64,000 nucleotides of DNA from Chlorobiota bacterium (GTDB lineage: Bacteria > Bacteroidota > Ignavibacteria > OLB7), in NCBI GenBank assembly GCA_028287785.1, contig JAQBOZ010000007.1, positions 271,393 to 335,392 of the forward strand, given 5' to 3'. The notes under the pieces are model-generated. The model ran no database searches, was not told the origin of the DNA, and was given only the letters and a program-made list of their open reading frames with translations. The number at the start of each line of letters is the position of its first letter. Position 1 is the stretch's first letter. Shown piece by piece: positions 16,101 through 64,000 of the stretch. The position numbers and the translations under genes are program-made.

Positions 16101-16140
16101 AGGATCTTCAGGACCCGCCATCCAACAGCACATCGACGAT

Positions 16141-19422: not shown

Positions 19423-19492
19423 AAGCCGGAGCGCGAAGATAACCGCTTGCCGGAGATTCCACCGCCGGATGCCGACGAAAAATGCTCATATG

Positions 19493-19668
19493 TCGGGGAA
19501 CGTTTGAAACGTCCCCTCATGCATGAAGCGTAAGGGGACGTTTCAAACGTCCCCCGACGATCGCTAGAACCGGACGCCCACGGTCATGAAGAGAATCGGT
19601 AAGGGGACGTTTCAAACGTCCCCCGACGATCGCTAGAACCGGACGCCCGCGGTCATGAAGAGAATCGG
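19493..19668. repeat. tandem array: degenerate unit + 2 x 69-bp units, each carrying the palindrome GGGGACGTTTCAAACGTCCCC
   Basis: Units 19531-19599 and 19600-19668 differ at one position. The last 36 nt of each unit equal the last 11 codons plus TAG stop of the upstream outer-membrane-protein gene. Confidence 0.8.
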
Positions 19669-32507: not shown

Positions 32508-32813
32508 AGTTACTTCCTGACTCAGCCTGAATCAGGCTCTGGTCTGCGCCGCGATCATCCGGCAATATCTCTTCATCGTTCTTCAAGCTCCGTGGGAGCG
32601 CGCCGGTTGTAGCAACCGATGCTCCCGTTCCCCCTCAAGCTCCATCGGAGCGGACCATCCCCGCATCCATGCCGAATGGTCCGCTCCGATGGAGCCTGAC
32701 ATCATGAAAGACGTGACGTTGCTACAACCAGCCCGCCCCGATGGGGCTGTCAAGACGGAGGCCTTACATAATGCCGTGTTTCGTGCCTCTCATCTCAAAT
32801 TGAGCCACTACCC
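32508..32813. mobile_element. MITE-like element family A, copy 2 (left terminal repeat degenerate)
   Basis: Shares the internal CTCAAGCTCCATCGGAGCGGACC hairpin and loop with copy 1; right end CAAATTGAGCCACTACC. Confidence 0.45.
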
Positions 32814-35990: not shown

Positions 35991-36043
35991 GCGTGGCGGA
36001 TGGTCGGGGCGGGTTTGAAACCCGCCCCGACCATCCGCCACGC
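35991..36043. repeat. perfect 53-nt palindrome (26-bp arms, single-nt centre) of the GGGCGGGTTT-AAACCCGCCC family
   Basis: GCGTGGCGGATGGTCGGGGCGGGTTT-G-AAACCCGCCCCGACCATCCGCCACGC, verified base by base. It lies 24 nt upstream of the Rieske-fusion start codon. Confidence 0.9.
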
Positions 36044-41535: not shown

Positions 41536-41572
41536 CGCAGTCGGGGCGGGTTTTAAACCCGCCCCGACTGCG
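41536..41572. repeat. perfect 37-nt palindrome CGCAGTCGGGGCGGGTTT-T-AAACCCGCCCCGACTGCG
   Basis: Sits between convergent lysS and the 41553-42038 gene; the TAA stop of the reverse-strand gene is the palindrome centre. Confidence 0.85.
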
Positions 41573-42065: not shown

Positions 42066-42575
42066 CTATGGCCGGCCGGGTCCTCCGGTGCTATCGCCTC
42101 CGGGGCGTCCCCGCGGGCCGGCCGGAGCCGTCCAGTCCGACCCTATTTCCGGGTGGCGTATCTCCCCGCCCCTGGTGGATGTGATCGCCATCAGGACGCA
42201 GACAGCCAGCGAGAGAAGCAGGAGGACGGCCATCAGCCAGGCGGGCGGGCCTTCCGGCTTCCGCATCATCACAAGCCCGAAGATAGCGAGTATTCCGGCG
42301 ATCTCGGCGCCGATCATCGAGATAAACGCCATCTCCTCGTGCGCGTGAATCGCCCCGCGCATCACGCCGGAAACGCCACGCAGCGTCTCCTGAGCCGGAT
42401 CGCCCGTCAGATAGGCGGGGATGGTGATGGCAGCCACAACCACGAACGACCAGAGCGCGACCCTTCGGACATCGGCGCTTTTCCGCATCATCGCAACCAC
42501 CAGCAATGCCGTGCAGAAGAGGATGCCGACAACCGGAATGTGGTTGAGTATCAGATGAATATGTGCTCCGTTCAT
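42066..42575 (-). CDS. hypothetical membrane protein (4 TM)
   Basis: MNGAHIHLILNHIPVVGILF... hydrophobic helices; start overlaps the upstream gene by 4 nt. Confidence 0.5.
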   Translation of the reverse strand: MNGAHIHLILNHIPVVGILFCTALLVVAMMRKSADVRRVALWSFVVVAAITIPAYLTGDPAQETLRGVSGVMRGAIHAHEEMAFISMIGAEIAGILAIFGLVMMRKPEGPPAWLMAVLLLLSLAVCVLMAITSTRGGEIRHPEIGSDWTAPAGPRGRPGGDSTGGPGRP

Positions 42576-43087
42576 TTCTCCCCCGCGGTTATTGTGTTAC
42601 GATGGCTGGCCTGTTCAAGCATGTCGGCTTCATGATCCGCGACGGAATTTCCCGTTCGCATTCCGCGTTCCTCTTTTTCGCGCTGGCAGAGCTCCAGAAA
42701 CTCCTGCTCGTAGCGCTGCAGATCATCGTCGGAAAGATGCCCCAGTTGCGCGAAGTTGGTACGCGCGTGCTTCATGGCGCGGAGCAGCTCATCCAGCTTC
42801 AGATGGATCACCTTCGAATCCCGGTTCTGGGTATTCTGAATCAGAAAGACCATCAGGAATGTGATGATGGTGGTTCCGGTGTTGATCACAAGCTGCCATG
42901 TATCCGAATACTGGAACATGGGGCCGGTAACCGCCCAGACAAGGATGATCACGATGGAGGCGATGAACGACCAGGCCGAGCCGACAATATCTGATGTTGC
43001 GGCGGCAACCTTGCGAAACGCCTCCCTCATCGTATGCGCCGTGCTGCCTGATTGCTCCGCTTCGGAGGTCTTCTGTACCTCGCTCAT
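42572..43087 (-). CDS. low-affinity iron permease family protein (Fet4-like small form)
   Basis: Conserved core ILVWAVTGPMF...WQLVINTGTTIITFLMVFLIQNTQNRD...IHLKLDELL. Confidence 0.7.
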   Translation of the reverse strand: MSEVQKTSEAEQSGSTAHTMREAFRKVAAATSDIVGSAWSFIASIVIILVWAVTGPMFQYSDTWQLVINTGTTIITFLMVFLIQNTQNRDSKVIHLKLDELLRAMKHARTNFAQLGHLSDDDLQRYEQEFLELCQREKEERGMRTGNSVADHEADMLEQASHRNTITAGEK

Positions 43088-43246
43088 AACGATTCCTGAA
43101 TATCGATGGAAGAAATGATCAATCCGTTTCGTTATGAAGAGATCAAAATCCGTACCTCAAACCTCCATCCCCTCAGATGTGCGCGGGGCGATGCCCCGCG
43201 CACCAGGAATTGCGCCCCTCCGGGGCTTGGGACGATGCTTCCGACA

Positions 43247-43408
43247 ACGCTGCGGATGACCTTCTTCAGCGTATTCCAGAGACGCAGACCCTTCAAGGAC
43301 GATCAGGTGCAAGGCGGCCGAGCCTGAGCGAGTGAGGCGTCCCCCCGGACGCCGCAATGAGCCAACGGTGAAGGCCAACGCCGCAGATGACATCCTTCAA
43401 CAGTCTGC
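43247..43408 (-). mobile_element. MITE-like element family B, copy 1 (far end degenerate, 14-nt insertion)
   Basis: Reverse complement aligns with 51652-51786 (shared GCAGACTGTTGAAGGAyGwCATCTGCGGCGTTGGCCTTCACCGTT...). It abuts the TAG stop of mgtE. Confidence 0.5.
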
Positions 43409-44787
43409 TATAGGAGGGTCCCCCGAAGCACAAGCACCGCGACGGTGAAATAGATGATCAGCCCGGTCACATCCACCAGCGTGGCAACAAACGGCGCTGA
43501 TGATGTGGCCGGATCGGCGCCGAACCGCTTCAGGATGAATGGGAGCATCGATCCGGCAAGCGTTCCCCAGAGGACGATGCCGATAAGGGAAAGGCCCACC
43601 GTAAGCCCCACCAGCGCCCAGTGCGGCCCGTAGATCTGCGAGAACATGCTCCAGACCGCGATCCGCAGAAAGCCGATTGTCCCGAGAATCAGCCCCAGTA
43701 TCAGCCCGGAGAAAAGCTCGCGCCGCATCACCAGCCACCAGTCGCGCAACTTCACCTCCCCAAGCGCCAGGGCCCTGATGATCAGCGTGGCCGCCTGCGA
43801 GCCGGAGTTTCCGCCGCTCGATATGATCAGCGGCACAAAGAGCGCAAGCACCACCGCGCGGGCGATCTGCCCCTCGAAGAACCCCATCGCCGTGGCGGTG
43901 AGCATCTCCCCGAGAAAGAGGATGACAAGCCACGAGGCCCGCTTGCGAACCATCCGAAGGAGCGGAGTGCTCACGTACGGCTCATCCAGCGCCTCCAGGC
44001 CGCCGAACTTCTGGATGTCCTCCGTCGCCTCCTCCTCCGCCACGTCCAGCATGTCATCCACGGTAACGATGCCAAGCAGCCGGCCGCGCGCGTCGATCAC
44101 CGGAAGCACCGTCCGGTCATATTTCCGGAAGACATCGATCGCCGACTCCTGATCCTCGGTGGCACGAAGCGCCAGGAACTGGTTGTCCATCAGATCGGCC
44201 ACGCCGGTATGGAACTCCGCCAGAAGGAACTTTCTGATATGCACATCATCCACCAGGCGGTTGTTCGCGTCCACCACGTAGATCACATCAAGCGTCTCGC
44301 TGTTACGGCCATGCGTCCTGATATGATCCAGCACCCGCCGCACCGTCCAATCCTCCAGCACCGCGATATAATCCGGCGTCATCAGACGGCCCACGCTGTT
44401 CTCGGGAAAATCCAGAAGCGTCCGCGCCACCTCCCGCTCCTCGGTGGAGAGGAGGTTCATCATCTCGCCGGCGGTTTCTTCCGATACCTCCTCCAGCAGC
44501 GCTGTCCGGTCATCCGGCGACATCACGTTGAGAAGCGCCGATGCCTTCTCCCTGGTCATCCCTTCAAGCAGCCATGCCTGATCGGACGGATCGAGATACT
44601 CAAACGTTTCGGCGGCCAGATCCCCCTGAATCGCGCTGAACGCCTGCGGCCGCTCATCCTCGGGAAGGCTGGTGAGCAGCCCCGCGATATCGGCCGGAAG
44701 CCAGTCGCTGAAGACCTCGCTCAGTGTCTCAAGGTCGTCCGCTGCGATAAGATCTCTGATCTCGGGCTGGAGAAGTTTTTCGATCAT
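43408..44787 (-). CDS. mgtE: magnesium transporter MgtE
   Basis: N-terminal MgtE_N, tandem CBS, C-terminal 5-TM MgtE domain (GGNSGSQAATLIIRALA). Confidence 0.9.
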   Translation of the reverse strand: MIEKLLQPEIRDLIAADDLETLSEVFSDWLPADIAGLLTSLPEDERPQAFSAIQGDLAAETFEYLDPSDQAWLLEGMTREKASALLNVMSPDDRTALLEEVSEETAGEMMNLLSTEEREVARTLLDFPENSVGRLMTPDYIAVLEDWTVRRVLDHIRTHGRNSETLDVIYVVDANNRLVDDVHIRKFLLAEFHTGVADLMDNQFLALRATEDQESAIDVFRKYDRTVLPVIDARGRLLGIVTVDDMLDVAEEEATEDIQKFGGLEALDEPYVSTPLLRMVRKRASWLVILFLGEMLTATAMGFFEGQIARAVVLALFVPLIISSGGNSGSQAATLIIRALALGEVKLRDWWLVMRRELFSGLILGLILGTIGFLRIAVWSMFSQIYGPHWALVGLTVGLSLIGIVLWGTLAGSMLPFILKRFGADPATSSAPFVATLVDVTGLIIYFTVAVLVLRGTLL

Positions 44788-50196: not shown

Positions 50197-51651
50197 ATGG
50201 TTCGTGTTCGCTTTGCTCCGTCGCCCACAGGCATGCTCCACGTTGGCAGCCTCCGTTCCGGCCTCTACAACTACCTCTTCGCGCGCCATCTCGGCGGCAC
50301 CTGCATCCTCCGCATCGAGGATACGGATCAGACGCGGTACGTGGAAGGGGCGGAACAGAACATCTTCGAGATGTTCCGGTGGACCGGCATCGAGTTCGAT
50401 GAGGGGCCGCACGTGGGAGGGCCGCACGGGCCGTACCGTCAGTCCGAGCGCACCGATATCTACAGGGTCCACGCGCAGATGCTGCTGGATCGCGGCACCG
50501 CCTATTACGCGTTCGATACCGCCGAGGAGCTGGACCGGATGCGCGAGCGACAGAAGGCGGCCGGCGTCGCCCCGAAGTATGACCGCACCTCGATGCGGAA
50601 CCAGTTCACGCTCGGCGAGGAGGAGACGCGACGCCTTATCGATTCGGGGACGCCCTGGACCATCCGGCTCTTTGTGCCGCTGACCGGCGAGACCCGTACC
50701 AGCGACCTTGTCCGCGGCGAGAGCGTCTTCCCGAACAAGACCATCGATGACCAGATCCTCCTGAAATCCGATGGCTACCCGACCTATCATCTCGCCAACA
50801 TCGTGGATGATCATCTGATGGAGATCACCCATGTGATCCGGGGGGAAGAGTGGCTTCCATCGCTTCCCAAGCATGTTATCCTCTACGATGCGTTCGGCTG
50901 GGAGAAGCCGCAGTTCGCCCATCTCCCGCTCCTGCTGGGGCCAACCCGCAAGAAGCTCTCGAAGCGTGATGGCGATGTCTCCGTGGCGGAATATCTCCAG
51001 AAGGGCTATCTCCCGGAGGCGCTCGTCAACTTCGTGGCGCTGCTTGGGTGGAACCCGACCGCGGATCGCGAGATCTTCACGGTGGAGGAGATGATCGCGA
51101 TGTTCGAGCTGGAGAAGGTGAACAAGGCGGGGGCGATCTTCGATCTTGAAAAGCTCAACTGGATGAACGGCATGTACCTCCGCCAGATGCCGATCGAGCG
51201 CCTGGCCGGCGATGTGCTGCCGATACTCGCCAGAGCGGGATTCGGGAATGTGGAGATGATCTATGCCGAGGCGGTGGTCGATCTGATCAAGGAGAGGATC
51301 ACCACGCTGAACGATATCCCGACCTTCGCCGACTACATGTTCGGGCCGATCCGGTGCATCGATTTCGCCTACGCGCAGAAGCACTGGAAGGCCGGGACAC
51401 AGGAGCAGGTCGCGGAGATGGCGGGCCGGTTTGCCAGGCTGAACCCCGCCGAGTGGACCGTGTCGATGATCGAGGGGGTGGTGCGCGGCTACGCCGAGGA
51501 GCTTGGCCTCTCCGCCGGAAAGCTGATCCATCCTCTCCGCCTGGCGATCACCGGCAGGCAGGTGGGCGCCGGGATGTTCGAGACGATGGTGGTGCTGGGA
51601 CAGGGGACATCGATCACGCGGCTGCGGGAGTTTACCGGGCCGGCGGTATAG
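50197..51651 (+). CDS. gltX: glutamate--tRNA ligase
   Basis: HIGH region (PSPTGMLHVG), KMSKS-like KLSKR, anticodon-binding C-terminus; 484 aa. Confidence 0.9.
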   Translation: MVRVRFAPSPTGMLHVGSLRSGLYNYLFARHLGGTCILRIEDTDQTRYVEGAEQNIFEMFRWTGIEFDEGPHVGGPHGPYRQSERTDIYRVHAQMLLDRGTAYYAFDTAEELDRMRERQKAAGVAPKYDRTSMRNQFTLGEEETRRLIDSGTPWTIRLFVPLTGETRTSDLVRGESVFPNKTIDDQILLKSDGYPTYHLANIVDDHLMEITHVIRGEEWLPSLPKHVILYDAFGWEKPQFAHLPLLLGPTRKKLSKRDGDVSVAEYLQKGYLPEALVNFVALLGWNPTADREIFTVEEMIAMFELEKVNKAGAIFDLEKLNWMNGMYLRQMPIERLAGDVLPILARAGFGNVEMIYAEAVVDLIKERITTLNDIPTFADYMFGPIRCIDFAYAQKHWKAGTQEQVAEMAGRFARLNPAEWTVSMIEGVVRGYAEELGLSAGKLIHPLRLAITGRQVGAGMFETMVVLGQGTSITRLREFTGPAV

Positions 51652-51786
51652 CAGACTGTTGAAGGACGACATCTGCGGCGTTGGCCTTCACCGTTCGCTC
51701 ACTGCGGCGTCCGTGAGCTCAGGTTCGGCCGCCTTGCATCTGATCGCCTTGAAGGGTCTGAGCGCTGAAAGCACTTCAACAGTCTG
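51652..51786 (+). mobile_element. MITE-like element family B, copy 2
   Basis: Perfect 13-bp terminal inverted repeats CAGACTGTTGAAG...CTTCAACAGTCTG. It begins on the base after the gltX TAG stop and is followed by a CGGCGGCG/CGCCGCCG hairpin. Confidence 0.6.
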
Positions 51787-51860
51787 ATACGGCGGCGACC
51801 GCCCATGCGAGCGCCGCCGCTTGTGAAGACTGGATTTTTGACTACGGACCAACTCCTCCG

Positions 51861-52766
51861 ATGCAAACCACATTCAATACGAAGCTCGTCGGCGTGCTCT
51901 GTCACCCCGTCGGCGAGAACCTGATCCATCAGATGATCTCCACCGCCTGCGAGATCGCCGGGGCCGACGTATCCTGCCTCCTCTTCGACGCGCAGGTGCG
52001 GGAGCTTGCCACCCCGGTCGCCGCGCTTCGCGCGCTCGGCGCCAGCGGCGTCTACCTGGACACCCGTCTTCGTGGCGCCGCCGCGGGGCTGGTGGACTAT
52101 CTTTCCGACGAGGCCCACGGCGCCGGCGTGATCAACACGATGGTCTTCGACGGCGACCAGGCGACGGGTCACAACACGGAGGCCAGGGCGATCGTAAAGG
52201 TGCTGGAGCCGTACAAGGATATCTTCGGCAACGGCAGCGCGGTGATCCTCGGCGGCGGCGCCATGGCCCGCTCGGCCGCCTACGCGGTGGTCCGCCATTT
52301 CCGCCTGAAGCATGTCGCCATCGCCAACCGCACGCCGCAGCAGGCGCAGATCCTGAAGCAACTGCTCAGCGGCACCAAGACCACATCGGTGATCGAGGCA
52401 TACGAGCTGTTCCCTCCGGATCTGGCGCAGACCCTGGCGGAGTCGCGGCTGATTATCAACGCCACCCCGCTCGGCTCCTATCCGAATGTGGAGGAGACGC
52501 CGATCACGATCCCCGAGATCTTCCACGATCGCCAGATTGTCCTGGACACCAACTTCAGCCCCGCATTCACCCGGATGCTCACCGATGCCGCCGGCGGCGG
52601 CGCCACGACGATCAGCGGCGTGGAGGTGCTGATCGAGCAGGTCCGCGAGGCCTACGAGCTGCTGACCCGGTCGACCTTCCCGCTCGAACAGATCAGGGAT
52701 CTGCTGGTGACGAACGCCGGGGAAAACGGCGCCGCGGAGAGCGCCGGCGATGAAACCGCCGGGTGA
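51861..52766 (+). CDS. aroE: shikimate dehydrogenase
   Basis: Shikimate-binding N-domain and NADP Rossmann motif (ILGGGAMARSAAYAV); 301 aa. Confidence 0.8.
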   Translation: MQTTFNTKLVGVLCHPVGENLIHQMISTACEIAGADVSCLLFDAQVRELATPVAALRALGASGVYLDTRLRGAAAGLVDYLSDEAHGAGVINTMVFDGDQATGHNTEARAIVKVLEPYKDIFGNGSAVILGGGAMARSAAYAVVRHFRLKHVAIANRTPQQAQILKQLLSGTKTTSVIEAYELFPPDLAQTLAESRLIINATPLGSYPNVEETPITIPEIFHDRQIVLDTNFSPAFTRMLTDAAGGGATTISGVEVLIEQVREAYELLTRSTFPLEQIRDLLVTNAGENGAAESAGDETAG

Positions 52767-52985
52767 TGACATGATGAAGCCGGAGCGCATCCCTTGCGGC
52801 GCGCCCCGGCTTCGCCTGGAACTGATCGCTATTTGAAGAGCGGCAGCACCTCGTCATTCAGCGTGGTTTCAAGGTTCTGCACCGCGGTCATCGCCCCCGC
52901 AATCGACGCCTTGCTCCCGCCGTGGGTTTCCATCACCGCCTCGCCGAACGATGGCTGGATAGCCATCACCCGCCGCACCGATTCA

Positions 52986-54011
52986 TCAAGCTGCGCGGAC
53001 CTTTGCATCCAGACCGGGATTTTGCTTCACCACCAGACTGCTGATGCCCAGGCCGACGACCGGCATGTTCCGCTCGCGATATTCACCCGTGTACCATGCC
53101 CTGAGCCCCTCCAGGTTTGCGAGGAAATCCGCCTTCGTCGTGCCGCTGAACCGCGACTCCTCGAAGGCCTTGTCCGAGCTGTGATAGGGGATGCCCATCT
53201 TCGAATTGGCAACTTCGTAGGTGAGCGTGATCGCGTTGCTGGTGACATCCTTCAATGCGGACAGCGCTGACAGATAGGGGCTTCCAGGCTGGCCGGCATG
53301 ACAGAGCTGCCATGCAAATGCCGTGCTGTCGCCGGCCATCGTTCCCTGCCATGCGGTCCTGAGCCTGGCCGTGCTGCCGTGCAGCATTGCCGATGCAGCA
53401 ATCAGATAATCGTATTCACTGCCGGTGATCTGCTCGACCTTCTTCTGTCCGTCCAATCCCCACAGCAGATACTCGATCGCATGAAATCCCCTGGCCGTTC
53501 CCTCCTCCTGGGCGAGCGTTGCCATATCGATCCCATCGTTGTCCTGGAGGATGCTCTCGATCGTGTTGAGGTCCGCCGGCCAGCTATCGATGTCGGGATC
53601 GGTACCCTGGTTCTTGGCGGGCCCCACCAACCCCATCTCGAAGAACTCCCACGGCCTTCGCGCCAGCTTCCATGCCTCCCTGGCCGCCTCCAGGCTGCTC
53701 GCCGTTCTCGCCGACTTCAGGTCGGAGATCCTGTCGGCAAGCGCGCCGGCGTATGTGTCGAGATCGACCGTGGCGGAAACGTAGACGTTCTCCGAGAGCT
53801 GGCAGAGAACATCCCGCATGGCATTATCGCTCACCGTCCGCACCGAATCAACGCGATGGAGCGAATCGGCGCGATGGAGTGAATCGGCACGGCGGAGCGA
53901 ATCGGCAAGGAGCGCGGCCTTGTCGACCCCGGTTGGATTGCTGCAACCAGCCGAGGCGATCGCCATGAGCGCGATCGTCAGCATGAACTGTATGATGAGG
54001 GAGATTTTCAT
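52986..54011 (-). CDS. imelysin-family (peptidase M75/IrpA-like) lipoprotein with N-terminal tandem repeat
   Basis: Lipobox ASAGC; conserved imelysin HxxE-like region (GFHAIEYLLWG); N-terminal (R)ADSLH pentapeptide x3 encoded by 15-bp tandem DNA repeats at ~53818-53900. Confidence 0.7.
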   Translation of the reverse strand: MKISLIIQFMLTIALMAIASAGCSNPTGVDKAALLADSLRRADSLHRADSLHRVDSVRTVSDNAMRDVLCQLSENVYVSATVDLDTYAGALADRISDLKSARTASSLEAAREAWKLARRPWEFFEMGLVGPAKNQGTDPDIDSWPADLNTIESILQDNDGIDMATLAQEEGTARGFHAIEYLLWGLDGQKKVEQITGSEYDYLIAASAMLHGSTARLRTAWQGTMAGDSTAFAWQLCHAGQPGSPYLSALSALKDVTSNAITLTYEVANSKMGIPYHSSDKAFEESRFSGTTKADFLANLEGLRAWYTGEYRERNMPVVGLGISSLVVKQNPGLDAKVRAA

Positions 54012-54169
54012 GTGCCAGCCCGGTAGATGAAATTGTGTGACGGGAATTGCGTTGAGCATTGGAAGATACTGGGAAAGACCCCGGCGCATACAAAAAGTGT
54101 CGCCCCCCTGGCTCCCCCGATCCGATTATCTCCTTCCCATATCGCCGACGCTCCGGTAACTTCATCGGC

Positions 54170-54916
54170 ATGAACAACCTTACTCCCGGCGAACCTGAAC
54201 CAACCCGCGGCATCGTGGTGATCATCTCCGCGAACGCCGAATGGAATGTGATGCGCGCCATCCACCCGGCGGCGGAGATGCGGCGGACGCCGTTCGGCGA
54301 ATGGTTTGTTCGTGAGATGGAGATCGGCGAGGAACGGCGGCCGGTGACGTTCGTTCACGGCGGCTGGGGGAAGATCGCGGCGGCGGCATCGGCGCAGCAT
54401 GCGATAGACAGGTTCCGGCCGGAACTGCTGGTGAATATCGGAACGTGCGGCGGCTTCGCCGGATTGATCGAGCGGGGAACGGTGGTGGTGGCGGAGCGGA
54501 CCGTGGTGTACGATATCATCGAGATGATGGGAGATCAGGAGGAGGCGACGGCCCATTACATGACGGAGATCGACCTCTCCTGGCTCGGCGAATCCCTCCC
54601 GACCGAGGCGCTGCGTACCCTCCTCGTCTCCGCCGATCGCGATCTGATGATGAACGAGCTTCCCGATCTCCGCGCCCGCTACAACGCCGTCGCCGGCGAC
54701 TGGGAATCGGGGGCGATAGCATGGGTCGCGGCCCGCAACGGCGTCCGGCCGCTGATCCTCCGAAGCGTCTCCGATCTGGTCGGCGATGGCGGAGGTGACG
54801 CCTACGGCCGCATCGACGTCTTTCATGAGAGCACCAGGGAGGTGATGGCCCATCTGCTTGCGATCCTTCCACGGTGGATCGCGGCGGCCATGCGCTCCCG
54901 CGTCACAACCCGCTGA
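54170..54916 (+). CDS. purine nucleoside phosphorylase-family enzyme (MTA/SAH-nucleosidase / futalosine-hydrolase-like)
   Basis: PNP_UDP_1 fold motifs (GIVVIISANAEWN, NIGTCGGF, SVSDLVGDGG). Start taken at MNNLTPGE to leave a promoter gap to the divergent imelysin gene. Confidence 0.7.
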   Translation: MNNLTPGEPEPTRGIVVIISANAEWNVMRAIHPAAEMRRTPFGEWFVREMEIGEERRPVTFVHGGWGKIAAAASAQHAIDRFRPELLVNIGTCGGFAGLIERGTVVVAERTVVYDIIEMMGDQEEATAHYMTEIDLSWLGESLPTEALRTLLVSADRDLMMNELPDLRARYNAVAGDWESGAIAWVAARNGVRPLILRSVSDLVGDGGGDAYGRIDVFHESTREVMAHLLAILPRWIAAAMRSRVTTR

Positions 54917-54987
54917 CCGGGCGGCCGGCAATCGGCTGGAACGAGTGCCGGGATCATCCCGGAAACGCGATCATATCCTGAAAGCCC

Positions 54988-57948
54988 ATGCACGTTGTTC
55001 GCTACCTGGCCCTCCTCTGGCTCCTCCCCATCGCGGCCCTGGCCCAGGGCTCGAACATGGTTTCCAATCCCGGCTTTATCGGCACCTATGGAACCGGCAT
55101 CGGCCCCGATAATATCCCCCCGTGGCTCCCCGCCTGCGGCACCCCTGACGCGCGCGCCGGCAACGGCTGTTCCGATACCGGCTATATCGCGATGTGGGGG
55201 AACAAGTTCGTCGGGGAGGCGATCAAGGAAAAGCTGTTCATCCGCATCAGGAAGGACAGCCTCTACACCTGCTCCCTCTGCATGCGCGCCAGCCCCGATG
55301 TCGGCAGGTACTTCCGCGCCCGCGTCGTGGCGTTCAGCACCACTCCCCGGTTCGACAATTTCCACTGGGATATTCAGGAGCCGCAGGTTGCCCTGATCGG
55401 ATCGGCCGGCACCGCCAGCCTGAACTGGCGCACCCTCACATTTCCACCGTGGAAGGCGCCGGCTGACTACGACAGCATCGCGATCAACGTCGAGAACGAT
55501 TCCGCCGACTACACCAACCCGGCCACCGTATCGTGGGGGAATATCGACGGGGTGAATCTGGAGAAGGTGTCGAAGTGCATCCTGTCGGTGGACTCGTTCA
55601 CCGTCCGCTGCAACGGCTTCGATCAGCAGGGACACCGGCTCTACCTCTACTCGGTAAACGCGAGAAGCGATATCGATGGCTTTATCGTCGCATCCACGCC
55701 GAACGGACAGGCGACCATCTCCCAGAACACGATCCCCGCGGCCACGGAGGTGAACATCACCGGCACGATCACCGGCACCAGCGGGACAAATGATCCGCTC
55801 TGCCTCTACGTTTCCCTTATCACCGGAAACGGCCTCCTCTGCCGCGATTCCATCTGCATCCCCTCGCCACTGCCGGCGCCCCTCAACAGCCGCGACACGA
55901 TCTGCACCGGCGGAGCCATCACGCTCGATGCGCCCGACGGGATCGCCTGGCGCTGGAGGCCGGCCACGGGACTGAGCTGCGCGGACTGCCAGCACCCGAC
56001 GGCATCGCCCGATGTCTCGACCAGGTATCTGGTGGAAACCACCGGCCGGCAGGGATGCGTCTCGGTCGATACCGCCGATCTCCAGGTGGCCCCGCTGCCG
56101 GTCATCACCGCCGGAACCAAGGTGACGATATGCCTGGGAGGAAGCACGGAGTTGTTGGTATCCGGCGGGGCAGCCTATCGCTGGAGCCCGGCGACGGGAT
56201 TGAGCTGCACGACGTGCCCCAACCCCATCGCCTCACCGACCGAGCCGACGGTGTACACGGTAACGGTGACAAGCGCCGCCGGCTGCTCCGCGAACGCCTC
56301 GATAACCGTGTTGATCGATTCCGCGACGGCGATGATCCGATCGATTTCGAGGGATACCACCATCTGCGCCGGAGAGGGCGCGCACCTCATCGCGAGCGGC
56401 GCCGATCGCTATCAGTGGTCCCCCGCCACCGGGTTGGGCTGCGTCGACTGCGCCGATCCGATCGCGTCGCCGGCCGTCACGACCCGATATACCTGCACGT
56501 TCATCAGCGTCGCCGGCTGCTCCGCGCGGGATTCCGTGCTGGTGACCGTGGCGCCACCGCCGGCCGCGGACGCCGGGGCCGATACAACCATCTGCGCCGG
56601 AGGAGAAGCGGCGCTGAGCGGGTCCGGCGGCACCGGATACAACTGGTCCCCCGCCGATGCAATCAGTTGCACCGACTGTAGAAATCCGGTGGCCCGCCCC
56701 CTGATCACAACCACCTATACACTCCGCGTGACAAACGCGGCAGGCTGCTCCGCGACCGACTCCGTTACCGTGCATGTCCTCCCCCTCCCCTCCGCCGACG
56801 CCGGCCCCGATGTCGCGGCCTGCCCCGGAGAGAGCATCACCCTCTCGGCATCGGGCGGAACAACGTATGCCTGGTCCCCCGCCGAAGGGCTCAGCTGCGC
56901 CGACTGTCAAAGCCCGGTCGCCACGCCGTTGCGGACGACGGTCTATCATCTGACGGCAATCAACGCCGCCGGCTGTGCCGCAACCGACAGTGTTACGGTA
57001 AACCTCCGCGCGGCTCCGACGGTGACCGCTTCCGGCGATACCGATATCTGCCCGGCCCGCCCGGCCCGGCTCCATGCGTCGGGCGCGTCGGTCTACCGCT
57101 GGAGACCGGCCACCGCCCTTTCCTGTACGGACTGCCCCGATCCCGTGGCAACGCCGCTGGTCACCACCACCTATGTGGTTTCGGGGACCGACGCTCATGG
57201 CTGCACCGGGGAGGACACGGTGATCATCCGCGTCGGCGATGGAACGCGAACCATCACGGCGCATATCGATCGCGACCACCACCTTCTGCCGGGAAGCATC
57301 ATCGCGATTCCCATCATCCTGGATTCCGCGGCGGACGGCGCGGCAACGCTGGAGATCGCGCTGGGTTACGAACGACGCTTCCTCCGCCTCAAACGGATTT
57401 CGACCGATGGAACGCTCCTCGACGGATGGGCCATCACCACCCTGACCGATTCGCTCGGCGCCGTCCGCGTCAGGCTGGATGCCCCACCGGGACGCACGCT
57501 GCGGGGACGGGGAACGCTGGCGACGATCGATCTGGCGGGCTATCTGGCCGATACGGTGGAATCGGAACTGCCGTTCAGCATCACCCTCCCGGCCGGCTCG
57601 TGCGATCGCATCACCGCGCTGCCGGGGCATATCAGGATCGATTCGATCTGCGGGCTGAACCTCCGGCTGATCCGTGTGACCGTCGGCAACTACTCCCTCG
57701 CGGGAAATCGCCCCAACCCCTTCAACCCATCCACCGAGATATCCTTCTCGCTCGGCCTTGACGGGCCCACAACGCTGGCGATCTACGACGCCGCCGGCAA
57801 TGCCATCACCACCCTCATCGACACCTGGCTCCGGCCCGGAAGCTACACCGTCGCGTGGGATGCCTCCGGGCAGCCCTCCGGCATCTACTACTACAGGATG
57901 ACCTCCGGCGCCTGGAGCGGCCAGGGAAGGATGCTGCTTGTGAAATAA
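54988..57948 (+). CDS. large secreted protein with 8 tandem ~47-aa Cys-containing Ig-like repeats and T9SS C-terminal sorting domain
   Basis: Signal peptide; repeat consensus ICxGxxxxLxASGGxxYxWSPAxGLSCxDCxxPxAxPxxTTxYxVTxxxxxGCxxxDSVxVxV spanning ~55880-57240; C-terminal ...GNRPNPFNPSTEISFSL...GIYYYRMTSGAWSGQGRMLLVK. Confidence 0.75.
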   Translation: MHVVRYLALLWLLPIAALAQGSNMVSNPGFIGTYGTGIGPDNIPPWLPACGTPDARAGNGCSDTGYIAMWGNKFVGEAIKEKLFIRIRKDSLYTCSLCMRASPDVGRYFRARVVAFSTTPRFDNFHWDIQEPQVALIGSAGTASLNWRTLTFPPWKAPADYDSIAINVENDSADYTNPATVSWGNIDGVNLEKVSKCILSVDSFTVRCNGFDQQGHRLYLYSVNARSDIDGFIVASTPNGQATISQNTIPAATEVNITGTITGTSGTNDPLCLYVSLITGNGLLCRDSICIPSPLPAPLNSRDTICTGGAITLDAPDGIAWRWRPATGLSCADCQHPTASPDVSTRYLVETTGRQGCVSVDTADLQVAPLPVITAGTKVTICLGGSTELLVSGGAAYRWSPATGLSCTTCPNPIASPTEPTVYTVTVTSAAGCSANASITVLIDSATAMIRSISRDTTICAGEGAHLIASGADRYQWSPATGLGCVDCADPIASPAVTTRYTCTFISVAGCSARDSVLVTVAPPPAADAGADTTICAGGEAALSGSGGTGYNWSPADAISCTDCRNPVARPLITTTYTLRVTNAAGCSATDSVTVHVLPLPSADAGPDVAACPGESITLSASGGTTYAWSPAEGLSCADCQSPVATPLRTTVYHLTAINAAGCAATDSVTVNLRAAPTVTASGDTDICPARPARLHASGASVYRWRPATALSCTDCPDPVATPLVTTTYVVSGTDAHGCTGEDTVIIRVGDGTRTITAHIDRDHHLLPGSIIAIPIILDSAADGAATLEIALGYERRFLRLKRISTDGTLLDGWAITTLTDSLGAVRVRLDAPPGRTLRGRGTLATIDLAGYLADTVESELPFSITLPAGSCDRITALPGHIRIDSICGLNLRLIRVTVGNYSLAGNRPNPFNPSTEISFSLGLDGPTTLAIYDAAGNAITTLIDTWLRPGSYTVAWDASGQPSGIYYYRMTSGAWSGQGRMLLVK

Positions 57949-58141
57949 TCTCTTCAGTCTCGTGATGAATTGCAGTGATCGTGTGTCCTGATCCCCATGG
58001 GCCGCGTTTCCCGCGCGTCCCACGGCGGACCGGCCCGTGCGCCGTAACGTTCCGCCCGTGGAATCATTCCTGGCTATGACCGGCGAACGCCATCGGTCAG
58101 GAACGGCTCCCCGCCGCGGCACTCTCAATTCATCCGAGGCA

Positions 58142-61100
58142 ATGCTCATGAGGCTGATTTCATCTGATCCGGCAGGCGGCGGGAAGAACCTGCTTCCGCT
58201 CACCATCGCGCTCATCATCGCCATCATTGCGCTGGTTCCGGGCGTTCTCCGCGCGCAGGGGGGGACATCATCGGACGCTCCGCCGAGCGGGGAAACCGTG
58301 GAACGCGCGCTCTCCTCGCTGCCGGTCGTCTTCCGCAGGAACGCGGGGCAGTGGGAAGATCCGATTCTCTACCAGGGACGCTCCGCGGGGGCCAATGTCT
58401 ACTTTATGCGGGACGGGCTCAGCTTCGGCTATACGCGTGAGATAGAGGGAGAGGACGAGGAGGGAGAGGGTGATGAGGGGAGCCACGGCGATGAGTCGGA
58501 TGCATCGGAATTCCTGGTCTGGAACCTCACGTTCGCCGGGATGAATCCCAATGCGCGCGTCGTCTCCGAAGGGGAACACGAGGGGAACACGAACTATCTC
58601 CGCGGCGAGGATTTCAGCAGACACCTGACCCATGTGCCGGAGTATTCGCGCCTCTGGTACAGGGATATCTACCCCCATATCGATCTCCGCTACTACGGCA
58701 CCGGAGCGGCGTTGAAGTACGATTATATCGTGGCGCCGGAGGGGAATATCGCCGATATCAGGATGGCGTGCAGCGGCATCGAGAAGCTGGCGATCAACGC
58801 AAAGGGACAGCTCGAAATCACCAACGCCTGGGGAACCGTGGCCGAGGAAGTGCCCTTCACCTATCAGGTGATCAACGGCGCCAGACGCGAAGTGGCGTCG
58901 CGCTATCGGATGGTGAACGATACCACGTTCGGCTTTGCGATCACCGGCGGCTACGATCATGCGGAGCCGATCGTGATCGACCCGATCATGCTGGCGTGGT
59001 CCACCTTCGTCGGCGGGACGGGGGATGAACAGATGGGATATATCCGCGATATCGCCGTGGATAAGAAGGGGAATGTCTACGGCACCGGCTGGTATACCGC
59101 CGGGTTCCCGACAACGCCCGGCGTCTACGGCAAAGGCGCGTTCGGCCCCGACTACAATTTCTTCCACGACTACTACAACGATGTCTTCGTCTTCAAGCTG
59201 GACGCCACAGGGACAAAGCTGATCTACTCCACCTATATCGGCGGCTCATCGAACGAGCTGGGGCTCAGGCTCAGGGTGAACGATGCGGGAGAAGCGTTTG
59301 TTACCGGGCAGACCTTCACATCCGGGGGCGGGTTCGGGCGGAACAACTTTCCGATCACCGCCAACGCGCTGTCGAAAACGTATGGCGGCAACTTCGATCT
59401 CTTCGCCCTCCGCCTGAGCGCCGACGGGACAAAGCTGATCTACTCCACCTACATCGGCGGTGATGATTACGAGGACGTTGGGGGGATCGCGATCGATCAG
59501 CAGGGATCGCTCTATATCTGCGGCTCCACATCCAGCAGCAATTTTCCGACGACGGCCGGCGCCATCCGCCGCACCCCCTACGGCAACTCGGATATCTTCG
59601 TCTCCAAACTCGCCGACGATGGAAGCAGGATGATCTTCTCCACCTATATCGGTCAGAAGGGGAATGACAGCGCGTACGATATGGCGCTCGACCGCCAGGG
59701 AAATATCTACGTTTCAGGGTGGACAAGCTCCACCAATTTCCCCGTCACCGCCGGAGCCTACGCAACCCGCTACGGCGGCGCGGGGGCGGGAGTTGTGCTG
59801 AAGCTGGCCCCCGATGGGGGACGCATTATCTACGCAACCTTTATCCAGTCCGCCAACGACGACAAGAACGTGATCGCGGTTGACCGCGACGGGAGCGCCG
59901 TTGTTGCCGGGACCACCAACGACCGGAACTTCCCCACCACCGCGAAGGCGTATTCGCGAACGCTGAAGGGGGCCTCCGATGCGTTCGTGGTAAAACTGGA
60001 TAGCCTTGGGGCGACGGCGCGCTACTCCACGCTCCTTGGCGGAAGCGGCAATGAACAGCCCGAGGGAATCGCCCTTGCCGCCGGCGGAGAGGTCTTTATC
60101 TCCGGAAGATTGATCTTCCCGAACGCCCCCTCCACCCGGAATTTCAAGGCCGATTTCCCCGTGACCAGATGCGCGCTGGAACCGGATTACCGCTCGCAGA
60201 TGGATTTCAGTTTGCTGTGGGACGGCTTCGTCAGCCGCCTGAGCGCCGACGGGGCGCGGCTTGAATACTCCACCTATCTCGGCGGCAAGAACAATGATTA
60301 CTACGCCAGAGTCATATTCGATACGGTCGGCGGCAGGCAGGATCTCTATATCTCGATAACAACCCATTCCCCCGATTTCGTCACCACGCCGGGATCGTTT
60401 CAGCCGGTGAAGCTGAACACTGCCCGCGATCAGCCGGTGGTGATGAAGCTTAGTCCCATCTACCGTCCCGCGTTCACGCACCGGGCCGATAACTGCGGCG
60501 GGGATCGATTCTTCGATTCCACCATCGCCGACTGCATCTGGACCGACAGCACATGGACGCCGGGAAGCTGGCGATGGGATTTCGGCGATGGATCGACATC
60601 GACCGATCGCAACCCCATCCATTCCTACACGCGTCCCGGCGACTACGCGGTAACGCTGGTGACCGGAGCGCCGTACGACTCGATAACGACCGTCGTTCAT
60701 ATCGCCCCGGCGGGCTCCATCGCACCCGCCGCCGCCGCCCATATCGCGACCGACAACCGGGCGATGCCTGGGGATTCCGTGACGATTCCTGTGGTGCTCG
60801 ATACCCCCGCCGATACGCTCGGCTGCCGCCGGATAGCCTTCTCGATCCTCTATGACAGCAACATGATGAGCCTGGCAAATGCCACCCCCACCAGGCTCCC
60901 CTCGATGCTCAAGGGGACGCTTGTCGAGGGATGGACCCCGATGGTAACGGCCGATCGCCCCGGCTTCTTCTCCCTCACGCTGGATGCTCCGCTCTCGATT
61001 CAGCCGCTGAAGGGGAAGGGAAATATTCTCGAGCTGCGGTTTTCCACATTTATCAAGGGGGCGGGCGACGCGCAGACCGATTCGATCTGGCGATCGCCGC

Positions 61101-61477
61101 TGCCGTTCGATCTTACGCTCTACACGGCGCAGTGCGCGCCGGTTGCCACCGTTCCGGGGGAACTCCGATTCGAGCTCTGCGGCATGCGGGAACGCCTGAT
61201 CATCGCCACGATGTCGAAGTATGCTCTGAGGCCCAATGCCCCCAACCCGGTCCACTCCGCCACGGATATCGAGTTCTCGCTCGGCCTGGATGGCTATACA
61301 ACGCTGGCGGTCTACAATGCCCGCGGGGAAAAAGTGGAGACGCTGGTGGATGGATACCTGGAGCCCGGAAGCTACGCGGCCCACTGGGATGGAACCCGTC
61401 ATCCCTCCGGCGTCTATCACTACCGGCTCTCCTCCGGCACCTGGAGCGCGGAGGGGAGGATGCTGCTGACGAAATGA
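58142..61477 (+). CDS. secreted SBBP beta-propeller-repeat protein with PKD domain and T9SS C-terminal sorting domain
   Basis: Repeated YSTYIGGxxxExGxxIAxDxxGNxYVxGxTxSxNFPTTxGA (SBBP) units x~9, PKD-like WDFGDGSTSTDRNPIHSYTRPGDYAVTLV, C-terminal ...RPNAPNPVHSATDIEFSL...GVYHYRLSSGTWSAEGRMLLTK. Start at MLMRLISS (TM/signal anchor follows). Confidence 0.75.
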   Translation: MLMRLISSDPAGGGKNLLPLTIALIIAIIALVPGVLRAQGGTSSDAPPSGETVERALSSLPVVFRRNAGQWEDPILYQGRSAGANVYFMRDGLSFGYTREIEGEDEEGEGDEGSHGDESDASEFLVWNLTFAGMNPNARVVSEGEHEGNTNYLRGEDFSRHLTHVPEYSRLWYRDIYPHIDLRYYGTGAALKYDYIVAPEGNIADIRMACSGIEKLAINAKGQLEITNAWGTVAEEVPFTYQVINGARREVASRYRMVNDTTFGFAITGGYDHAEPIVIDPIMLAWSTFVGGTGDEQMGYIRDIAVDKKGNVYGTGWYTAGFPTTPGVYGKGAFGPDYNFFHDYYNDVFVFKLDATGTKLIYSTYIGGSSNELGLRLRVNDAGEAFVTGQTFTSGGGFGRNNFPITANALSKTYGGNFDLFALRLSADGTKLIYSTYIGGDDYEDVGGIAIDQQGSLYICGSTSSSNFPTTAGAIRRTPYGNSDIFVSKLADDGSRMIFSTYIGQKGNDSAYDMALDRQGNIYVSGWTSSTNFPVTAGAYATRYGGAGAGVVLKLAPDGGRIIYATFIQSANDDKNVIAVDRDGSAVVAGTTNDRNFPTTAKAYSRTLKGASDAFVVKLDSLGATARYSTLLGGSGNEQPEGIALAAGGEVFISGRLIFPNAPSTRNFKADFPVTRCALEPDYRSQMDFSLLWDGFVSRLSADGARLEYSTYLGGKNNDYYARVIFDTVGGRQDLYISITTHSPDFVTTPGSFQPVKLNTARDQPVVMKLSPIYRPAFTHRADNCGGDRFFDSTIADCIWTDSTWTPGSWRWDFGDGSTSTDRNPIHSYTRPGDYAVTLVTGAPYDSITTVVHIAPAGSIAPAAAAHIATDNRAMPGDSVTIPVVLDTPADTLGCRRIAFSILYDSNMMSLANATPTRLPSMLKGTLVEGWTPMVTADRPGFFSLTLDAPLSIQPLKGKGNILELRFSTFIKGAGDAQTDSIWRSPLPFDLTLYTAQCAPVATVPGELRFELCGMRERLIIATMSKYALRPNAPNPVHSATDIEFSLGLDGYTTLAVYNARGEKVETLVDGYLEPGSYAAHWDGTRHPSGVYHYRLSSGTWSAEGRMLLTK

Positions 61478-61509
61478 TGATCGCGCCACGATGCAATGCA
61501 CTGTTGTAA

Positions 61510-61530
61510 GGGGACGTTTTAAACGTCCCC
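61510..61530. repeat. palindrome GGGGACGTTTTAAACGTCCCC between convergent genes
   Basis: Same TAA-GGGGACGTTTyAAACGTCCCC-CGAC context as the copies at 19534 and 19603. Confidence 0.8.
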
Positions 61531-61540
61531 CGACAGGCCG

Positions 61541-63202
61541 TTATACATCATCGCTGCTGCCGGGGGGGAGCTTCGGCTCCACCATCACCACTTCCTCGCG
61601 TTCCATCATCACGGCACCCACCGCGGCGCCCCGCGGCTTCCGGACATGCTTCTTCAGCGTGTAGGCCACCGGCACCATCTTGGCCCCCCGTGCCCCGGAG
61701 TAGTACGCCGCAATCGACGCCGCCCCACGAATCGCGTCGCGCGGGGGCTTTGATTTCGGGTCGCTCCAGCGGAGGACGACGTGCGAGCCCGATGAGCCGC
61801 GCGCGTGGAACCAGTAATCGTTTGGACGGGCGAACCTGACGGTCAGCTCGTCGTTGTTCGCGGCGTTCTTTCCGGCGTAGACCTCGTGCCCGCCGGCCAC
61901 CTCGAACTTTCTGAATCGCTCCGGCGTGCCGGGCTCCTTTGCTTCTGCGGTCATCGTGAATAGATCCTTGTTCTCCTGTTCAATCCGTTCCAGCTCGTCG
62001 CTGCCGGTCGCCGCCGCCGCCCGTTCCAGCAGCCCGGCTATCCGTTCCAGCGTCCGCCGGTTTCTCTGAATTCCGGCGCTTCCCCGCGCCATCGAGTCGC
62101 GCGCGCCGCGTGCCTTCCTGAAATAGCGCTCGGCGTTCTCCACCGGCGTCAGCCTGGCATCCAGGGTGATTTCCCTCCCCTGCCCCTCCCAGTCCGTCAG
62201 CGTCACCTTCGCGCTCCCCTTCTCCACCAGTTGAAGGTTGCTCATCAGGAGGGTTCCCTGGCTCTCCCAGTCCTCCCCCTTTTTCTGCTGCGATGTCGAG
62301 TCCAGCCGGTTGGCGAGCGAGCGCTCCAGCCTTGTCCGCTCGGTCGTCAGGCGCTTGAAGATTCTATCGCGCAGCGCAGCAAAGCTCCTCCCATGAAACG
62401 ATGCCGACCTGTGGGCGCGCACGGCGCGATCGAGCCGGCTGAACGTCTCGACCCGGACCGCCTGAAGCTCCAGGCTCCGCAGTTCCACCAGGGAGAAGAT
62501 CACCTCATCGGGAAGATGGTAGAGATAAAAGGTCTCGCTGGCCTCCGCCGCGCCGTACAACTGGTCGATCTCCGCGAAGAGCGCGTCCAGCGTGGCGTCG
62601 TCAAGATCGTGGAGAGCGGCGGCCCCAACCAGCCCGCGACGGAAGAGCGCCTCCGCCGCAAGCCGCTTCCCAAGCTCCGGGATGGCGCGGGTCAGCGCGC
62701 GCGATGGCGGCTCATGGATGCTTCTGATCGTGGCGCGGAGATCGTCGGGGGAGCGGACATCGTGCTCCGCGCGACCGGAGATGATCGCATCATACTCCCC
62801 GGAATATTTCGTGAAGGAATCGATCACCCCCCAGTCGCGAAGCAGCAGGATGTTGCCGCCGCCACCGCCGAAGAAGAAGATCGCCAGCTCATCGCCGCCG
62901 GAGAAATGAATGGTGATGGCCCGCTCCCCCTCATCGATCGTCACACCGGTCACCTGCTCCCCGAGCAGCCCCCCGAAAAAGTCGATAGTGTTCCGGCGCG
63001 CCCGATGAATCTCATCGCGCATCAGAGCGTAGCCAAGCTGCGGGTCAAGCGCCACCTCCACGAAACGGGATTCCCGCCCCTGAATAAAGCGGAGGACCAG
63101 CGCGTTTTTTTCCTGCGACCAGCATTCCGCGAGATGCCAGCCCCGAAGCCCTTCATCGAGCAGGAGCGCCTCGTGAGCGAATGTGAGATAATGACGGATC
63201 AT
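61541..63202 (-). CDS. NFACT-family (FbpA/RqcH-like, DUF814) RNA-binding protein, ribosome-quality-control homologue
   Basis: N-terminal NFACT-N, coiled-coil middle, C-terminal NFACT-R motif ...WFHARGSSGSHVVLR...; 553 aa. Confidence 0.75.
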   Translation of the reverse strand: MIRHYLTFAHEALLLDEGLRGWHLAECWSQEKNALVLRFIQGRESRFVEVALDPQLGYALMRDEIHRARRNTIDFFGGLLGEQVTGVTIDEGERAITIHFSGGDELAIFFFGGGGGNILLLRDWGVIDSFTKYSGEYDAIISGRAEHDVRSPDDLRATIRSIHEPPSRALTRAIPELGKRLAAEALFRRGLVGAAALHDLDDATLDALFAEIDQLYGAAEASETFYLYHLPDEVIFSLVELRSLELQAVRVETFSRLDRAVRAHRSASFHGRSFAALRDRIFKRLTTERTRLERSLANRLDSTSQQKKGEDWESQGTLLMSNLQLVEKGSAKVTLTDWEGQGREITLDARLTPVENAERYFRKARGARDSMARGSAGIQRNRRTLERIAGLLERAAAATGSDELERIEQENKDLFTMTAEAKEPGTPERFRKFEVAGGHEVYAGKNAANNDELTVRFARPNDYWFHARGSSGSHVVLRWSDPKSKPPRDAIRGAASIAAYYSGARGAKMVPVAYTLKKHVRKPRGAAVGAVMMEREEVVMVEPKLPPGSSDDV

Positions 63203-63276
63203 GCCGATGCCCTTGCGATTTCCCGAAAGCCGGCAAGTTAGGGAGAAGGCGTGGTTCTGATAACGTGTTGGGGATC

Positions 63277-63589
63277 ATGGGTAGTGACTCAGGTTGGGAT
63301 ACGGTTCATGCTGTTCGGACTCATCGAGGGCATTCGGCATCTCTCCTTCCAGCCCCATCGGGGCGTACCGGTTGTAGCAATGCCATGTCTTCGATGATCT
63401 GAAGCTCCATCGGAGCGTACCATTTGGCACGGATGCGGGGATGGTACGCTCCGATGGAGCTTGAGCGGGAGATGGGAGCATTGTTGCTACAACCGGCGCG
63501 CTCCTACGGAGCTTGAAGAGTGAAGGAGGGATCGCCGCTCGATGATTGTTCAGCAGATGGAAGACTGGATTCAAACTGAGTCACTACCG
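63277..63589. mobile_element. MITE-like element family A, copy 3 (inverted relative to copy 1)
   Basis: GGTAGTGACTCAGGTTGGG...CAAACTGAGTCACTACCGG; internal AGCTCCATCGGAGCGTACC-loop-GGTACGCTCCGATGGAGCT; preceded by GATCATG. Confidence 0.6.
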
Positions 63590-63590
63590 G

Positions 63591-63906
63591 ATCATGAGAG
63601 TGACTCGGGTTGGGATGGGATTCATGATGCCCGGAATCATGGAGGCACCCGGCAGCCGTCTTCACAGCCCCAGCGGGGCGAGCCGGTTGTAGCAATGCCA
63701 TGTCTTTTGTGATGTCAAGCTCCGTAGGAGCGTACCATTCGGCACGGATGCGGGGATGGTTCGCTCCGATGGAGCTTGGGCAAACAACGGGAGCATCGTT
63801 ACTACAACCGGCGCGCTCCTACGGAGCTTGAAGAGCGATGAAGACTTCGCCGATGGAGGATCATTCAAGGGCTCCGAGGCTGGATTCACACTGAGGCACT
63901 GCCAGA
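63591..63906. mobile_element. MITE-like element family A, copy 4, in direct tandem with copy 3
   Basis: Starts ATCATGAGAGTGACTCGGGTTGGGATGG, same internal hairpin set, ends CACACTGAGGCACTGCCAGATCAT. Confidence 0.55.
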
Positions 63907-64000
63907 TCATCGCACAATTCCCTCTTCCCTTTGGAAGTTGTGGGGAGATAAGTTGAAATTGCCATTCATGCTCTTCTCGAAACAGACACGCCGTCGCTCG

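Follow-up and report, generated by a model that had tools for sequence, protein, structure and literature searches.

In a 64,000-nt stretch of genomic DNA (here called the window) from an uncultured member of the Bacteroidota, family Kapaibacteriaceae, whose genome is 62% GC, two copies of a short repeat that we name Family B each begin on the base following a TAG stop codon. One copy follows the stop of gltX (51649-51651) and the other that of mgtE (43408-43410), and the junction TATAG|CAGACTGTTGAAGG is common to both. This position raises the question of what kind of element Family B is and why its copies lie against stop codons. A preliminary description of the region had reported the two abutments correctly, and the names that it gave to the neighboring genes (mgtE, iron permease, gltX, aroE) were upheld by Pfam. 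The features of the two loci are as follows.

42572-43087, minus strand: low-affinity iron permease gene (Pfam Iron_permease)
43179-43203, minus strand: 11-bp GC hairpin GTGCGCGGGGC-ATC-GCCCCGCGCAC between copy 1 and the iron-permease gene
43200-43284, minus strand: degenerate tail of copy 1, with 13 spacer-like nt and then a decayed piece that weakly resembles positions 8-86 of a second direct copy
43285-43407, minus strand: copy 1, 123 nt, the core hairpin from the 5' arm through the inner 3' arm, lacking the outer repeat
43408-43410, minus strand: TAG stop of mgtE, native, abutted by copy 1
43408-44787, minus strand: mgtE (Pfam MgtE)
50197-51651, plus strand: gltX (Pfam tRNA-synt_1c)
51648-51650, plus strand: target-site duplication ATA, 5' copy, overlapping the TA of the gltX TAG stop (51649-51651)
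51652-51786, plus strand: copy 2, 135 nt with both termini kept, 13 nt of the family consensus being deleted internally (alignment to 11 other copies)
51652-51664, plus strand: left terminal inverted repeat CAGACTGTTGAAG, invariant in 18 of 19 family copies
51736-51760, plus strand: inner 3' arm GCATCTGATCGCCTTGAAGGGTCTG, which pairs with the 5' arm and closes the long hairpin
51774-51786, plus strand: right (outer) terminal inverted repeat CTTCAACAGTCTG, within the diverged second copy of the 3' arm, which is duplicated in tandem
51787-51789, plus strand: target-site duplication ATA, 3' copy
51861-52766, plus strand: shikimate-dehydrogenase-like gene, aroE (Pfam Shikimate_DH-like)

Two decaying copies in the window

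When the window was searched against itself with BLASTN, copy 2 (51652-51786) aligned to the reverse complement of copy 1 (43285-43407) over 123 nt with 82% identity (E=3e-32), and each copy was the sole match of the other within the window. The 12-mer CAGACTGTTGAA occurs three times in the window, where 0.03 occurrences are expected, and none of 100 shuffles reached three. Copy 2 has CAGACTGTTGAAG at one end and CTTCAACAGTCTG at the other, and these are the perfect 13-bp inverted termini that had been noted at 51652-51664 and 51774-51786. The reverse-complement copy had been placed at 43247-43408; this placement stands for 43285-43407 and falls for 43247-43284, which is not homologous to the outer end of copy 2, the homology common to both copies stopping at 51760 and 43285, respectively. 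What had been taken for a 14-nt insertion in copy 1 is actually a 13-nt deletion in copy 2, the bases being present in 10 of the 11 other full copies. The far end of copy 1 is indeed degenerate: the outer 13-bp repeat, which belongs to a duplicated 3' arm, is a feature of the family and has been lost from this copy. The assignment of the tail to a second direct copy is weak, with a local alignment score of 35 against a mean of 23 (sd 3.7) and a maximum of 35 among shuffles. The two copies of the window are old and in decay, the one at gltX with its internal deletion and the one at mgtE without its outer end. The hairpin that had been seen between copy 1 and the start of the iron-permease gene was located at 43179-43203; it lies outside the Family B repeat and has no T-run.

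A dispersed family without coding capacity

A search for further copies, as the preliminary description had proposed, found about 19 in other assemblies, namely the Ca. Kapaibacterium metagenome-assembled genome (MAG) JBDSJW01 and soil metagenome contigs, bringing the family to about 21 copies in all. An internal 18-mer was scanned against 185,579 species genomes and gave at least 118 loci, seven of which carry Family B, all from JBDSJW01, the others being chance 18-mer matches. Across those seven contigs nhmmer found 11 copies, including four or five within 7 kb of contig L095. A metagenome scan by the 5'-terminal pattern added the copies in soil contigs, comprising full copies in L121, L132, and L128 and central-deletion forms of 44-70 nt, with both arms kept, in L126, L127, and L131. 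A 38-nt hairpin in L130, with the first 22 nt in common, and eight AT-rich metagenome matches were set aside as chance or unassignable. Viral contigs and plasmid collections yielded no Family B, the one viral match being due to chance. The GltX of the window is 96% identical to that of JBDSJW01, and its other close matches are from Kapabacteria. The window's MgtE is 100% identical to a protein of a 'Chlorobi bacterium' MAG.

The family consensus is about 149 nt long and has perfect 12-13 bp terminal inverted repeats (TIRs), CAGACTGTTGAA...TTCAACAGTCTG, with copies ranging from 123 to 149 nt. The TIR 12-mer is invariant in 18 of 19 copies and the interior is variable. The consensus core reads CAGACTGTTGAAGGACGTCATCTGCGGCGTTGGCCTTCACCGTTCGCTCACTGCGGCGTCCGGAAGGACGCCTCATTCGCTCAGGTTCGGCCGCCTTGCATCTGATCGTCCTTGAACAGTCTG, and the extension that follows, GGCATCTGTAGTAATTCAACAGTCTG, repeats the 3' arm in tandem and in diverged form and supplies the perfect outer TIR. 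In L013, 33 nt have been lost between direct repeats TTCGCTCA. There is no conserved ORF, and coding is excluded because the indels between copies are 13, 1, and 33 nt. The flanking genes are housekeeping genes unrelated to one another: mgtE, gltX, diphthamide-synthase-like, aldo/keto reductase, ECF sigma factor, and ribonucleotide reductase genes and the dnaB region.

With two copies only in a 64-kb window, one could suppose that the similarity is fortuitous, or that an intergenic spacer has undergone local segmental duplication, with no element involved. This reading is refuted by the family census, with some 19 more copies in unrelated contexts in other assemblies; the E-value of the BLASTN alignment and the sharp end of homology at the termini also speak against it, and we give it practically no chance.

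Some individual sequences call for comment. In L128, near-identical inverted copies at 1382-1530 (plus strand) and 2654-2801 (minus strand) have identical outer 30-nt flanks, and the pair probably reflects not two insertions but a palindromic mis-assembly around the hairpin. Upstream of a META-domain gene, at L095 235-249, a lone 15-nt terminus, CAGACTGTTGAAGGA, has no homology beyond it and may be a truncated copy.

Several other repeats were noted in the same DNA. Family A, of about 320 nt, is present in tandem at 63271-63593 and 63644-63912, inverted at 16138-16460, and again at 32567-32763, and a filled and a clean empty site can be compared for it: in the window, GATCAT and GATCAT enclose 627 nt made up of two tandem copies, and the collinear MAG contig L142 has a single GATCAT at 9866-9871 and lacks the element. 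A 29-nt REP-like palindrome, GTCGGGGGACGTTTCAAACGTCCCCCGAC, is multi-copy, lying in the window at 3365-3410, 19480-19667 (three in a row), and 61494-61539, in L135 at 1341-1367, and in L095 at about 6009-6037 and 6918-6946; it also fills the gltX-aroE spacer of the JBDSJW01 relative, and two Family B copies that hold it lie inverted to each other on either side of a single gene. Another family of small palindromes, GTCGGGGCGGGTTT(G/T)AAACCCGCCCCGAC, is found at 35991-36043 and 41540-41568, and shares the GTCGGGG...CCCCGAC frame of the first with a different stem interior. About 3 kb of the window (54899-57941, compared with L142 4394-4452) are missing from the otherwise collinear relative, and internal repeats of about 228 nt at 55954-56922 are presumably repeated domains of a large surface protein.

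Flanking sequences and target duplication

The junctions of the family can be written as x-T-A-N|CAGAC...GTCTG|x'-T-A-y. TA is present on the 5' side (-3/-2) in 15 of 19 copies and on the 3' side (+2/+3) in 9 of the 10 copies that keep the outer repeat. The adjoining base matches across the element (x = x') in 9/10 copies, with TTA five times, ATA twice, and GTA and CTA, and it does so in four of the five informative cases where it is not T. A match between N and y is seen in 5/10 copies, which is too frequent for chance and too rare for a 4-bp duplication. At the 5' junction only, one variable base (G in about half of the copies, else A, T, or C) stands between NTA and CAGAC, as at 51651 and 43408. 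The target duplication is TA-centred, of the form NTA(N), mostly TTA, and 3, possibly 4, bp long. The alternative of a 2-bp duplication of TA alone, beside a variable end base that is symmetric, was considered and is ruled out by x = x' in 9/10 copies.

The proposal that Family B inserts at TA sites, including those of stop codons, is borne out by the TA and the matched duplicated base on its two sides. The narrower proposal of a TATAG target is not, as that sequence is confined to the two window copies and elsewhere gives way to TTAG, CTAG, GTAG, TTAA, TTAT, TTAC, and similar sequences. The NTA(N) pattern resembles the targets of the IS5 family and of PIF/Harbinger (Tourist) elements.

The same junctions bear on a different reading, under which Family B would be a REP/BIME-like or IS200/IS605-type palindrome (PATE) that a Y1 (RAYT/TnpA) transposase moves as a single-strand hairpin and inserts 3' of (T)ATAG-like sequences. 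The entire element is indeed hairpin-forming, the 5' flank is conserved between the two window copies, and the genome has other small REP-like palindromes, one of which has inserted into Family B. Against this, IS200/IS605 and REP elements make no duplications, whereas those of Family B match at both ends; its perfect TIRs lie at the very ends, the 5' flank is variable except for TA, a length of 123-149 nt far exceeds that of a REP unit, and no Y1 transposase was seen near any copy. We therefore regard a REP-type or IS200-type origin as highly improbable.

Association with stop codons

Genes in the host loci were called with a home-made codon-usage score trained on the window. By these calls, in five of 19 copies (both window copies, L095_6065, L127, and L131) a scored ORF of the same orientation ends in a TAG to which the 5' end of the element is directly joined. 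The 3' end of L027_1626 lies on the TAG of a convergent ECF-sigma gene, which makes 6/19 copies abutting a TAG overall, and one further copy lies 3 nt past a TGA. When the background is taken as all non-coding TA sites of the window, 5-8% of which are in stop codons, 6/19 is an enrichment (P about 0.0003-0.003), and the place just past a stop may accordingly be further favored, by preference or by selection. In a conditional test that considers the TA sites available in each host spacer, often only one to four, 4.3 stop-abutting copies are expected and five are observed (P=0.39). Because this per-spacer null so nearly predicts the observed number, stop abutment is mainly explained by TA targeting together with the scarcity of TA in short GC-rich spacers. 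The association put forward for the two window copies thus extends to some of the family, five of 19 copies by the 5' end, and does not go beyond the frequency expected from spacer TA sites. A rule of orientation toward the downstream gene, also put forward, does not hold: co-directional, convergent, and divergent spacers are all represented.

Whether the stop codons themselves belong to the host genes was considered for both window copies. The MgtE C-terminus RGTLL* is identical in 29/29 listed homologues of the query length, 459 aa, and a relative at 77% that lacks the element has TAG at the same mgtE codon (CTC CTG TAG); the mgtE stop is thus clearly native. For gltX, the ATA...ATA duplication suggested that the element might supply the stop and truncate GltX by 12 codons. 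This is unlikely, as in the 96% relative gltX ends at that very codon (TAA); a read-through GltX tail would also exceed all 40 orthologue tails in length, which argues against an element-made stop. The C-terminal tail of GltX is variable among orthologues.

As a separate observation, MgtE (43411-44787) has Kapaibacteria-like matches at 77-79%, and its next matches, at about 70%, include Singulisphaera and Isosphaeraceae (Planctomycetota), which hints that mgtE may have been acquired by horizontal transfer.

Orthologous spacers, mobility, and decay

The comparison of the gltX-aroE and mgtE spacers that had been suggested found relatives without the element, save for an 8-nt remnant at gltX. Between mgtE and the permease gene the spacer is 320 nt here, 69 nt in the 77% relative, and 141 nt in a 79% relative, these relatives being too diverged for base-level comparison. 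A JBDSJW01 contig is collinear with window positions 50330-64000 at 80-92% identity. Its gltX-aroE spacer is 94 nt long and lacks the element, the stop (GTA TAA) being followed by CAG-CAGACTGT-CTCTGTCTG and then by a small palindrome. At this site, in a relative of about 90% DNA identity, 8 nt matching the element terminus, CAGACTGT, are kept at the same position, and are best read as a remnant rather than as part of a clean empty site. The remnant implies that the gltX insertion predates the lineage split and was largely deleted in one lineage. A protein search for a close orthologue of a MAG gene flanked by copies, for use in site comparison, found none, the best match being 69%.

Other elements have in turn entered Family B: in two L095 copies the interior is interrupted at one and the same point by a 29-nt palindrome, GTCGGGGGACGTTTGAAACGTCCCCCGAC. 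The 8321-nt contig L001, assembled from the short reads of SRR13312994, spans gltX to mgtE and breaks inside both Family B copies, which is the behavior of a multi-copy repeat in assembly. A further contig of that run, L141 (1804 nt), ends in other repeats around an NFACT gene; repeat density fragments assemblies of this genome.

Hairpin structure and possible function

For 12 aligned copies, RNAalifold predicted an imperfect hairpin along the whole length of the element, with 34 pairs. In a counting test, 96.3% of cells were paired and six pairs had changes on both sides, examples being GG/CC to CA/TG, ACTG/CAGT to CCCC/GGGG, and T-A to C-G. None of 500 shuffles reached the observed values, and slid controls were 31-57% paired. 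The support for the structure comes from the alignment rather than from single-copy MFE, for which the z-scores do not stand out (copy 2, -0.19; copy 1 including the tail, -2.07). All six compensatory pairs lie in the 22-bp terminal helix, and because of this confinement the covariation does not discriminate between causes: it fits a symmetry of the ends imposed by a transposase as well as it fits an RNA or DNA hairpin. An integron attC site was also considered and rejected, the order of the core sites being reversed (GTTGAAG...CTTCAAC) and the neighbors being core housekeeping genes.

In Rfam searches at gathering and permissive thresholds, two tRNAs only reached gathering in the window, and the element regions gave E about 1 at best. 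Scans for intrinsic terminators (hairpin plus T-run) and sigma-70 promoters found none inside either window copy. The suggestion of a recruited terminator or leader element consequently fails, with no hairpin-plus-T-run, promoter consensus, or Rfam family to point to and with unrelated genes on the flanks.

These results weigh on a broader explanation, in which Family B is a functional RNA or DNA signal selected right after stops (a 3'-UTR stabiliser, an RNase III or other processing site, a termination modulator, or a terminator or leader) and its mobility is secondary or ancient. A stable hairpin begins at the stop in 5-6 of 19 copies, stop copies are enriched over random non-coding TA sites, about 11/16 copies share the direction of the upstream gene, and the stem is kept by compensatory changes, all of which would suit such a signal. 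However, all the compensatory pairs fall in the TIR helix, whose symmetry a transposase requires as well, and the conditional null accounts for the abutment of stops. Copies also lie in divergent promoter regions and at distances of 120-650 nt from the nearest stop; their orientation to genes is mixed; the corresponding spacers of relatives are without the element; copies decay by deletion; and there is neither an Rfam match nor a T-run terminator or promoter consensus. We consider a selected signal of this kind improbable.

Nevertheless, a stem that starts at the stop codon could, by analogy with other repeats, influence termination or mRNA decay. In a more specific version, the transposase or selection would favor copies whose 26-bp stem begins at the first post-TAG base, and the family would serve as a mobile unit by which termination of translation, rescue of ribosomes, or 3' mRNA decay of the upstream gene is adjusted; we think this unlikely.

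Identity and proposed mechanism

[quoted passage not shown] It is an ordinary, previously undescribed MITE of the palindromic ERIC/Correia-like type. It is very likely that the family as a whole represents a non-autonomous TIR transposon of Kapaibacteriaceae that targets TA, and that its position at stops comes from the scarcity of TA. Searches of the window, of the genes beside the copies, of viral contigs, and of plasmids found no cognate transposase with the same termini.

We propose that a transposase encoded elsewhere would cut a TA-centred target with a 3-4 bp stagger, which would give the NTA(N) duplication, most often TTA. At 62% GC and with short spacers, tolerated TA sites would be few, and often the sole one would lie in a TAG or TAA stop. 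Upon insertion at a stop, the upstream copy of the duplication would rebuild the stop codon, and the element would start on the next base, as at gltX and mgtE. Any effect on expression, such as that of a stable hairpin at the stop codon, would be a by-product.

The family adds a MITE to the poorly studied, uncultured Kapaibacteriaceae, and offers a simple account of why elements may sit on stops in GC-rich genomes, where TA targets are few and the duplication rebuilds the stop. In practical terms, short-read assemblies break at both copies, two spacers are enlarged by 140-250 nt, and the annotation of 3' ends can be misled. Should a hairpin at the stop codon prove to alter termination or mRNA decay, the family would provide a natural insertion set for studying this.

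Comparison with known systems

ERIC/IRU elements of enterobacteria and Correia/NEMIS elements of Neisseria are palindromic MITEs that insert at TA with duplication, are intergenic, often lie just downstream of genes, and are co-transcribed with them; both ERIC and Correia elements affect mRNA stability. Family B is like them in its size class (100-170 bp), its TIRs, its single long imperfect hairpin, and its insertion at TA with duplication, as well as in being mostly intergenic, in having size variants due to internal deletion, and in having received other repeats. It differs in showing no sequence similarity to them, in its apparent 3-4 bp NTA(N) duplication rather than plain TA, in the duplication of its 3' arm, which creates an inner and an outer right end, and in its uncultured Kapaibacteriaceae host.

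IS5 has the target YTAR, and the IS427 and IS1031 groups make duplications of 2-4 bp. With Tourist/PIF-Harbinger elements and the IS5 family, Family B shares a TA-centred target, a 3-bp TTA/TAA or 4-bp YTAR-like duplication, short TIRs, and non-autonomous amplification. This link is drawn from the duplication pattern only, and the TIR of Family B is not known to resemble IS5 termini.

Similar to Family B, REP/BIME sequences are GC-rich extragenic palindromes near stops with possible effects on mRNA or translation. In contrast to it, REPs are 20-40 nt long, lack the architecture of TIRs and duplication, and show a conserved head of the GTAG type and an association with a Y1 transposase. Liang, Rudd and Deutscher are reported to have found in 2015 that, in E. 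coli, expression of the upstream gene falls when a REP hairpin lies about 15 nt or less from its stop codon. A post-stop module of the kind considered above would be analogous to E. coli REPs lying no more than 15 nt from a stop, but Family B would be delivered by transposition into the stop codon itself.

Prokaryotic MITE families are extremely numerous, one survey having counted 118,358 clusters (PMC11602168). Among them, QMITE2 of Coxiella burnetii is described in a review as a MITE found mainly in the 3' untranslated regions of ORFs (PMC10969869); its sequence and host are unrelated, and its direct repeats are 7-9 bp.
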